In this document: piece after piece, positions 1 through 557 of the stretch
Position numbering within the stretch: the first letter of the stretch is position 1
Layout: each line of letters opens with the position of its first letter
NCBI RefSeq assembly: GCF_003334785.1
Contig: NZ_QOWV01000083.1
Strand: one strand, 5' to 3'
From: Escherichia coli
GTDB taxonomy: Bacteria > Pseudomonadota > Gammaproteobacteria > Enterobacterales > Enterobacteriaceae
Length of the DNA: 557 nucleotides
Notes under the pieces: generated by a model
What the model was told of the DNA's origin: nothing
Databases searched by the model: none
The model's input: only the letters and a program-made list of their open reading frames with translations
Made by a program: the position numbers and the translations under genes

Positions 1-557
1 CACCGTATTGACGCTTATTTATTGGTGAGTACTACGTTCCATGGCAGGAGTTCGTCAACACGGTTGGAGGGCCATTCCGGCAGTACGCTCAGAATATGGC
101 GCAGATACGCTTCCGGATCGATACCGTTCAGACGGCAGGTGCCGATCAGCCCGTACAGCAGTGCTCCACGCTCGCCGCCGTGATCGCTACCGAAGAACAC
201 GTAATTTTTCTTTCCGAGACAGACTGCACGAAGCGCTCTTTCCGCTGTGTTATTGTCCACCTCCGCCAGACCGTCATCACTGTAATAACAGAGGGCGTCC
301 CACTGATTCAGTACATAGCTGAACGCTTCGCCCAGTCTGGATTTTTTCGACAGCGTGCCATTCTTCTCCACCATCCATTCATGCAGCGACGTCAGTAACG
401 CTTTGCTTCGCTGCTGCCTGGCTGCAAGACGCTCTGACTCTGGTAATCCCCGTATTTCATCCTCGATGGCGTACAGTTCACTGATTCGCTTCAGGGCTTC
501 TTCTGCCGTCGCACTTTTGCTGCTGATGTATACATCGTGGATTTTTCGCCGGGCATG
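1..557 (-). mobile_element. Internal fragment of an IS66-family insertion sequence (3' part of the transposase gene plus 14 nt of downstream sequence); element ends not in window
   Basis: Inference from the transposase CDS filling the window. No terminal inverted repeat, target-site duplication or the upstream tnpA/tnpB-type ORFs can be seen within 557 bp, so the element boundaries and the specific IS name cannot be assigned. Confidence 0.8.
15..557 (-). CDS. tnpC: IS66-family transposase (TnpC/orf3-type), C-terminal portion; 5'-partial because the frame runs off the right edge of the window; stop codon TAA at 15..17
   Basis: Seen in sequence: my hand translation of the minus strand in the same frame as the 15..374 ORF stays open from 557 to 375 with no stop, giving HARRKIHDVYISSKSATAEEALKRISELYAIEDEIRGLPESERLAARQQRSKALLTSLHEWM joined directly to the track ORF (MVEKNGTLSKK...DNNTAERALRAVCLGKKNYVFFGSDHGGERGALLYGLIGTCRLNGIDPEAYLRHILSVLPEWPSNRVDELLPWNVVLTNK*). 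Established knowledge, recalled from memory and not database-verified: the HARR(K/R) motif, the NN-AER-LR ... K-N-LF-GS--GGER block, the LNG-DP--YL segment and the LLPWN C-terminal tail are hallmark conserved segments of IS66-family transposases such as IS66 and ISEc8-like elements. The symbol tnpC is the conventional name for this ORF type, not a specific element assignment. Confidence 0.9.
   Translation of the reverse strand, partial: HARRKIHDVYISSKSATAEEALKRISELYAIEDEIRGLPESERLAARQQRSKALLTSLHEWMVEKNGTLSKKSRLGEAFSYVLNQWDALCYYSDDGLAEVDNNTAERALRAVCLGKKNYVFFGSDHGGERGALLYGLIGTCRLNGIDPEAYLRHILSVLPEWPSNRVDELLPWNVVLTNK

Follow-up and report, generated by a model that had tools for sequence, protein, structure and literature searches.

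The 557-nt stretch of Escherichia coli DNA analyzed here, referred to below as the window, is almost certainly the 3′ end of an ISEc47/ISEc23-type insertion sequence (IS) of the IS66 family, whose source is E. coli or a close relative among the enterobacteria. It comprises the end of the transposase gene tnpC with its stop codon, as well as the inner portion of the right terminal repeat, and includes a conserved block predicted to be the catalytic-core helix that carries E463. The IS66-family traits found in the window or in sequence-identical copies included matches to the TnpC models, the tnpABC organization, the 8-bp target duplication, the inverted repeats, and the conserved DDE and CwAH residues. 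This element is already known: it has a name, is annotated and occurs ubiquitously, and an existing Pfam model has the block as its core; the identification brings nothing new and has little significance beyond the correct annotation of one of the commonest mobile elements of E. coli and its plasmids. The proposed link between the IS66 and IS256-type folds, in turn, provides a concrete and testable assignment of the catalytic glutamate.

Gene Content and Family Identity of the Window

On the minus strand, a frame was open from position 557 to a TAA stop at 15..17, a stop that matched the annotated CDS ends in the four loci compared (L001-L004). These 180 codons, cut by the right edge of the window and free of any frameshift or stop within it, were assigned to the 3′ part of tnpC (18..557, minus strand; residues 358-537 of a 537-aa IS66-family DDE transposase) on the basis of the open frame, Pfam and NCBIfam matches, and 100% identity to an annotated CDS. 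The first-pass annotation had placed a conserved IS66 C-terminal block at about 162..257 on this strand, and indeed the translation of 162-257 was exactly DNNTAERALRAVCLGKKNYVFFGSDHGGERGA, corresponding to residues 458-489. The segments LNGIDPEAYL (residues 500-509, at 102-131) and LLPWN (residues 527-531, at 36-50), also reported there as lying downstream, were recovered in frame with the block on the same strand.

The remaining features of the frame were likewise located on the minus strand. The codon of E463, the putative third DDE residue, occupied 240..242. The upstream end of the frame, at 546..557, encoded H358-A-R360-R361, the second half of a CWAH-RR motif whose C355-W-A fell just past the window edge, the full protein having ...EVACWAHARRK... 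at this point. An all-alpha-helical insertion domain, predicted from the helices of the structural model described below and from conservation, covered 282..554 (approximately residues 359-449, or 356-450 in the model) and contained E389 and R404, and the region of the Pfam 'IS66 C-terminal element' (PF13817) covered 39..149 (fragment residues 137-173). At the opposite end of the window, the unstranded positions 1..8 belonged to the right terminal inverted repeat, which is imperfect, and formed its inner part (IS positions 17-24), as window position 1 is L001 4001 and the IS starts at L001 3985, and the right tip of the element, GTAAGCGTCAACGGAG, lay within the 16 bases immediately beyond window position 1.

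Profile searches with the 180-aa fragment revealed matches to Pfam DDE_Tnp_IS66 (PF03050; E 1.2e-38, model positions 155-283 of 284) and DDE_Tnp_IS66_C (PF13817; E 1.6e-16), and to NCBIfam NF033517 'IS66 family transposase' (E 3e-51, model positions 229-385 of 387). The NF033517 score of 174.7 bits was slightly below the cutoff of 180 because the fragment represents only the last third of the protein; the full-length TnpC of an identical copy reached 450.5 bits against the same cutoff. At the nucleotide level, the 557 bases were 100% identical to E. coli genes annotated as 'IS66-like element ISEc47 family' and 'ISEc23 family' transposase, the best 20 matches (all at 100%) comprising 13 annotated as ISEc47-type and seven ISEc23-type plasmid copies. 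Of the 5,426 complete E. coli genomes, 4,565 contained some match to the window, the number of places per genome having a median of 2 and a maximum of 42. Matches were present on 2,048 plasmids as well, Escherichia being the main source, followed by Klebsiella, Shigella and Salmonella. As a multi-copy repeat common to at least two IS66 subtypes, the window has no unique genome placement.

The Complete Element and Its Recent Transposition

In the chromosome of strain WP7-S17-ESBL-04 (locus L001), the window corresponded to L001 4001-4557 and was part of a complete element of 2,541 bp (L001 3985-6525), which starts with GTAAGCGT and finishes with ACGCTTAC. In this locus, tnpC was a 537-aa ORF on the minus strand (4015-5628), preceded by tnpB and tnpA, the latter two overlapping by 4 nt. 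The tnpB product matched IS66_TnpB NF033819 with 119 bits against a cutoff of 50, and the tnpA product scored just below the cutoffs of the IS66 TnpA models (66.8 vs 74). The tnpA-tnpB-tnpC order, which extends beyond the window, was observed in the sequence-identical copies L001 and L003. The element was bounded by imperfect terminal inverted repeats (GTAAGCG.../...CGCTTAC), both ends beginning with GTAAGCGT, bases 1-8 being identical and approximately 16 of 24 matching. Imperfect terminal inverted repeats starting with 5′-GTAAGCG are characteristic of the IS66 family in ISfinder descriptions. Moreover, an 8-bp direct repeat, GTCTTATT, was present on both flanks, and a host gene placed between arsC and slp was split by the insertion. 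This anatomy agrees with the published description of IS66 in PMC6778807, according to which these elements carry tnpABC, tnpC encodes the transposase and has the highest conservation of these genes, and an 8-bp target duplication is generated.

Two further copies were found in the same strain. The plasmid copy L003 was identical to L001 at 2,541 of 2,541 bases and was inserted within an umuC/impB-like gene with the duplication CCATCGGG, and a second plasmid copy, L004 (NZ_AP022179.1 35043-40096), was identical at all 2,541 positions and lay inside an IS1414 remnant with the duplication GGATAAGC, its tnpB being interrupted by IS1203. L004 thus presented a nested arrangement in which the IS66-family element had split IS1414, of the IS256 family, and had in turn been split in its tnpB by IS1203, of the IS3 family. 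As the IS66 sequence of L004 was still identical to that of the intact copies, these nested insertions were all recent.

Identical copies at distinct sites with distinct duplications are a classic sign of recent transposition. The occurrence in one strain of three such copies, at three sites and with three different 8-bp duplications (GTCTTATT, CCATCGGG and GGATAAGC), shows that this element type transposed recently, and the ISEc47-type element has therefore moved recently. In more general terms, the full-length element matched 236 records at ≥99% identity, and a full-element search revealed a median of 3 and up to 47 places per genome. The ISEc47-type copies examined were complete and flanked by target duplications, and tnpC was a full 537-aa ORF in the four of four loci examined.

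The first-pass annotation had suggested a recently active copy rather than an eroded relic and had proposed comparing copies within a genome. That comparison, performed in WP7-S17-ESBL-04, gave zero base differences among the three 2,541-bp copies, and the suggestion is upheld for the element type; it does not extend to the window's own copy, since the same 557 bases were present in the tnpB-interrupted L004 and in a truncated ISEc23-type remnant, and the intactness of a conserved block within so short a window is no proof of a complete or autonomous element, a reservation that the first-pass annotation had already made with respect to activity. It is possible, although less likely than not, that the window derives from a defective IS66-family element, either a truncated ISEc23-type remnant or a tnpB-interrupted copy, whose block would be intact owing to too little decay time or to use in trans. 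Besides L004, such an origin has a precedent in the plasmid NZ_CP104511, which carries the identical 557 bp in a copy that aligns with the full element only up to IS position 1698, which is without tnpA and tnpB, and which has an IS3-family element and a partial transposase upstream; seven of the best 20 matches at 100% were plasmid copies of this ISEc23 type. However, the other 13 were annotated as ISEc47-type, a type whose examined copies were complete with target duplications, and tnpC retained its full 537 aa at every locus examined, with the window itself free of frameshifts and stops. A far more radical alternative, that the segment is not a real gene at all, being a chance ORF or one whose coding strand is the opposite one, is extremely improbable. 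The window does hold long plus-strand ORFs antisense to tnpC, at 96-398 (100 aa) and 41-322 (93 aa), but the minus-strand frame has profile matches with E values of 1e-38 to 1e-51, an Rfam search of the window gave no match at E ≤ 1, and 15.7% of synonymous-codon shuffles of tnpC gave a plus-strand stop-free run at least as long as the observed one, by which these 93- and 100-aa ORFs are most likely a product of chance.

With regard to possible regulatory signals, a promoter and terminator scan over the full element gave counts no higher than in shuffles. Apart from this, RNA folding of the minus strand revealed a hairpin at L001 3986-4017, that is, window 1-17 plus the 15 bases before it, with -17 kcal/mol and z = -4.9, none of 200 shuffles being as stable. 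This hairpin occupies approximately the last 32 bases of the element, covers the tnpC stop and reaches the second-to-last base of the element; its 5′ half on the tnpC transcript strand corresponds to window positions 1..17 (minus strand), and it is formed by the palindrome TAAGCGTCAA/TTGACGCTTA inside the right terminal repeat. Such a terminal hairpin could act at the end of the transcript or in the control of translation, or could belong to the transposon end as a DNA feature.

Conservation of the Flagged Block

A homologue search against 1.84 billion cluster representatives retrieved 46,212 relatives at E ≤ 0.001. The alignment was built with 111 near full-length proteins among the best 150 relatives, 33-49% identical to the query, and as it was made from the best matches to the query it represents the closer members of a very large family. 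In this 111-member alignment, residues 458-489 had the highest mean information of the 506 sliding windows of 32 aa (2.93 bits, the overall value being 1.96). The next peak of conservation without overlap was at residues 190-221. The claim that this is the most strongly conserved block was thus confirmed for the exact 32 residues.

Sixteen positions of the block were conserved at ≥80%, and the element matched the consensus at 13 of them, namely D458, N459, N460, E463, R467, G472, K474, N475, F478, G480, G484, G485 and A489. The three departures, K473 (R in 93% of members), V477 (L in 81%) and G488 (A in 82%), were conservative, which bears out the statement that no substitution obviously breaks the pattern. 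Outside the block, the window departed from the consensus at I363 (F in 86%) and A410 (P in 86%). All five variants were carried by copies that demonstrably moved, indicating that they do not disable the enzyme.

Elsewhere in the protein, the same alignment revealed conservation of 100% for D268, 99% for D332, 100% for C355, 80% for W356, 87% for A357, 100% for H358 and 97% for E463, all of these residues being present here, D268 and D332 outside the window. High conservation was also observed for R360 (98%), R361 (99%) and E389 (98%), whereas R404 was invariant, and P505, Y508, L509, L513, L527 and P529 were conserved at 81-97%.

Predicted Fold and Assignment of the Catalytic Glutamate

To our knowledge, the IS66 family is without a solved structure, and no published statement of the IS66 DDE residues or of the CwAH motif was found in the accessible literature. 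In RNase H-like DDE transposases, the catalytic glutamate is located on the first core helix after the insertion domain, and in IS256/MULE/hAT-type transposases this insertion domain is opened by a CxxH motif. An AlphaFold2 model computed on the alignment (mean pLDDT 92.9, pTM 0.79) presented an RNase H-like order of elements: a strand at 264-276 holding D268, strands at 281-292 and 304-310, a helix, a strand at 328-330 followed by D332, another helix, a strand at 351-353, C355/H358 of CWAH, an all-helical region at 356-450, and a helix at 460-476. The insertion domain was modeled as helices 356-370, 373-392, 397-425, 431-441 and 443-450, with pLDDT mostly >95, and E463 was placed at the N-terminal end of helix 460-476, the first core helix after the insertion domain.

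A Foldseek search of this model against the PDB returned only four matches at E ≤ 0.001, all of them from the IS256-family transposase ISCth4 (chains of 6xgx and 6xg8), with a best E of 1.4e-8 and a probability of 1.0, Hermes and RAG1 following weakly. Sequence-based comparisons were negative. A phmmer search of the full TnpC against the PDB found no solved structure with detectable sequence similarity, and an hmmsearch of the 112-sequence IS66 profile against PDB sequences returned chance matches only (E ~1), ISCth4 being absent from them. An hhalign comparison of the IS66 alignment with an ISCth4/IS1414 alignment gave a probability of 0.3%, the IS256 side being shallow (8 sequences with 85% mean column identity), and PF00872 (Transposase_mut) had no match in the window-encoded C-terminal fragment, the sole part scanned against Pfam. 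In ISCth4, the DDE triad is composed of D175, D241 and E348, and a CxxH motif (C262/H265) marks the start of an alpha-helical insertion domain, which lies after a core strand and before the glutamate helix (PMC7780238).

By analogy with this arrangement, the block would form the first catalytic-core helix after the all-helical insertion, which is the likely reason for its conservation, and E463, together with D268 and D332, would make up the metal-binding triad in an RNase H-like active site. CWAH would open the insertion domain in the manner of the CxxH motif of IS256/MULE/hAT-type transposases, and a G-R/K-K-N-x-x-F-x-G turn would follow the E463 helix within the block. We infer from conservation, helix position and the fold match that E463 is the catalytic DDE glutamate of TnpC and that the chemistry of IS66 transposition may resemble that of IS256-type enzymes. 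The first-pass annotation, which described the block as a C-terminal signature, therefore probably under-described it, as it would be the helix that carries the DDE glutamate.

The other acidic residue to be considered is E389, which, if it were the catalytic glutamate, would leave the block conserved for DNA-end binding or structure only. In its favor, E389 is conserved about as strongly as E463 (98% and 97%, respectively), but in the model this residue occupies a central position in helix 373-392, a part of the all-helical insertion, whereas E463 lies on the first core helix after it (460-476). Furthermore, in ISCth4, the sole significant fold match, the glutamate comes after the insertion and its context, T-T-N-x-I-E, is mirrored by D-N-N-x-A-E in TnpC. 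E389 is thus an improbable candidate and the less likely alternative to E463.

Outside the window, the N-terminus of TnpC presented a coiled coil of ~95 residues, and four near-invariant cysteines (C141, C144, C178 and C181) were found in a beta-rich region that looks like a zinc-binding DNA-binding module.

A Mosaic Boundary at the Window Edge

The ISEc47- and ISEc23-type elements presented zero differences from the tip to IS position 573, and the first difference was found at window position 558, immediately past the window edge (L001/L002 4557/4558; IS 573/574). Beyond this boundary, the ISEc23-type sequence differed from ISEc47 at 42 positions in 1,071 bp (3.9%), with 10 amino-acid changes, and at such a rate the chance of 573 bp without differences would be ~1e-10. 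Identity up to IS position 573 followed by 3.9% divergence indicates recombination or end-swapping between IS66 subtypes, in which the 3′ 573 bp, running to the window edge, appears to have been exchanged as a unit. The window itself may be a repeat-collapsed or graph-delimited fragment common to several elements. A wider scenario, in which IS66 elements use an ISCth4-like copy-out/paste-in pathway via a circular intermediate and the 3′ 573 bp, comprising the C-terminus of the transposase and the right end, is exchanged as a unit between subtypes, can be put forward only tentatively and is rather unlikely to hold as a whole.

The surroundings of the truncated ISEc23-type copy were also composite. 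Past its right tip, the segment L002 2736-3886 (NZ_CP104511.1) harbored a tyrosine recombinase pseudogene in degraded form, together with a separate IS66-like tnpA adjoining a yacAB toxin-antitoxin pair, which points to NZ_CP104511.1 as a patchwork of IS66 fragments.

Comparison with Known Systems

Among the known elements, ISEc47, as annotated by PGAP in E. coli (for example NZ_AP022177.1 221446-223986), was 100% identical to the window over 557 bp, with no detectable difference within it. The ISEc23-type copy of NZ_CP104511.1 likewise matched the window at 100% identity over its whole length and onward to the tip (IS positions 1-573), but it diverged abruptly past the window and was without tnpA and tnpB. 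The IS66 and IS679 prototypes (Machida 1984; Han 2001; Gourbeyre 2010, cited in PMC6778807) share with the element the tnpABC organization, the 8-bp duplication and the models matched, and differ from it in host lineage and in sequence, the 50%-cluster representatives being 33-49% identical to the query.

The most distant system compared, ISCth4, resembles TnpC in an RNase H-like core interrupted by an all-alpha insertion that opens with CxxH, and it also generates 8-bp duplications. The spacing of the putative active-site residues is close, with 66 residues between the two aspartates in ISCth4 vs 64 in TnpC and 21 vs 23 from the second aspartate to the cysteine, and the glutamate contexts, Y-T-T-N-T-I-E-S in ISCth4 and D-N-N-T-A-E-R in TnpC, both have an N three residues before the E. 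In contrast, the two proteins presented no detectable sequence homology, and their insertion domains are of ~65 and ~95 residues, respectively. In TnpC, unlike ISCth4, there is a long coiled coil at the N-terminus and a beta region rich in cysteines, and the accessory genes tnpA and tnpB are part of IS66 elements, ISCth4 having a single ORF. Taken as a whole, this comparison suggests that TnpC may work like the IS256/MULE-type transposases, a likeness to be read as a mechanistic resemblance only and not as sequence-level membership in that group.
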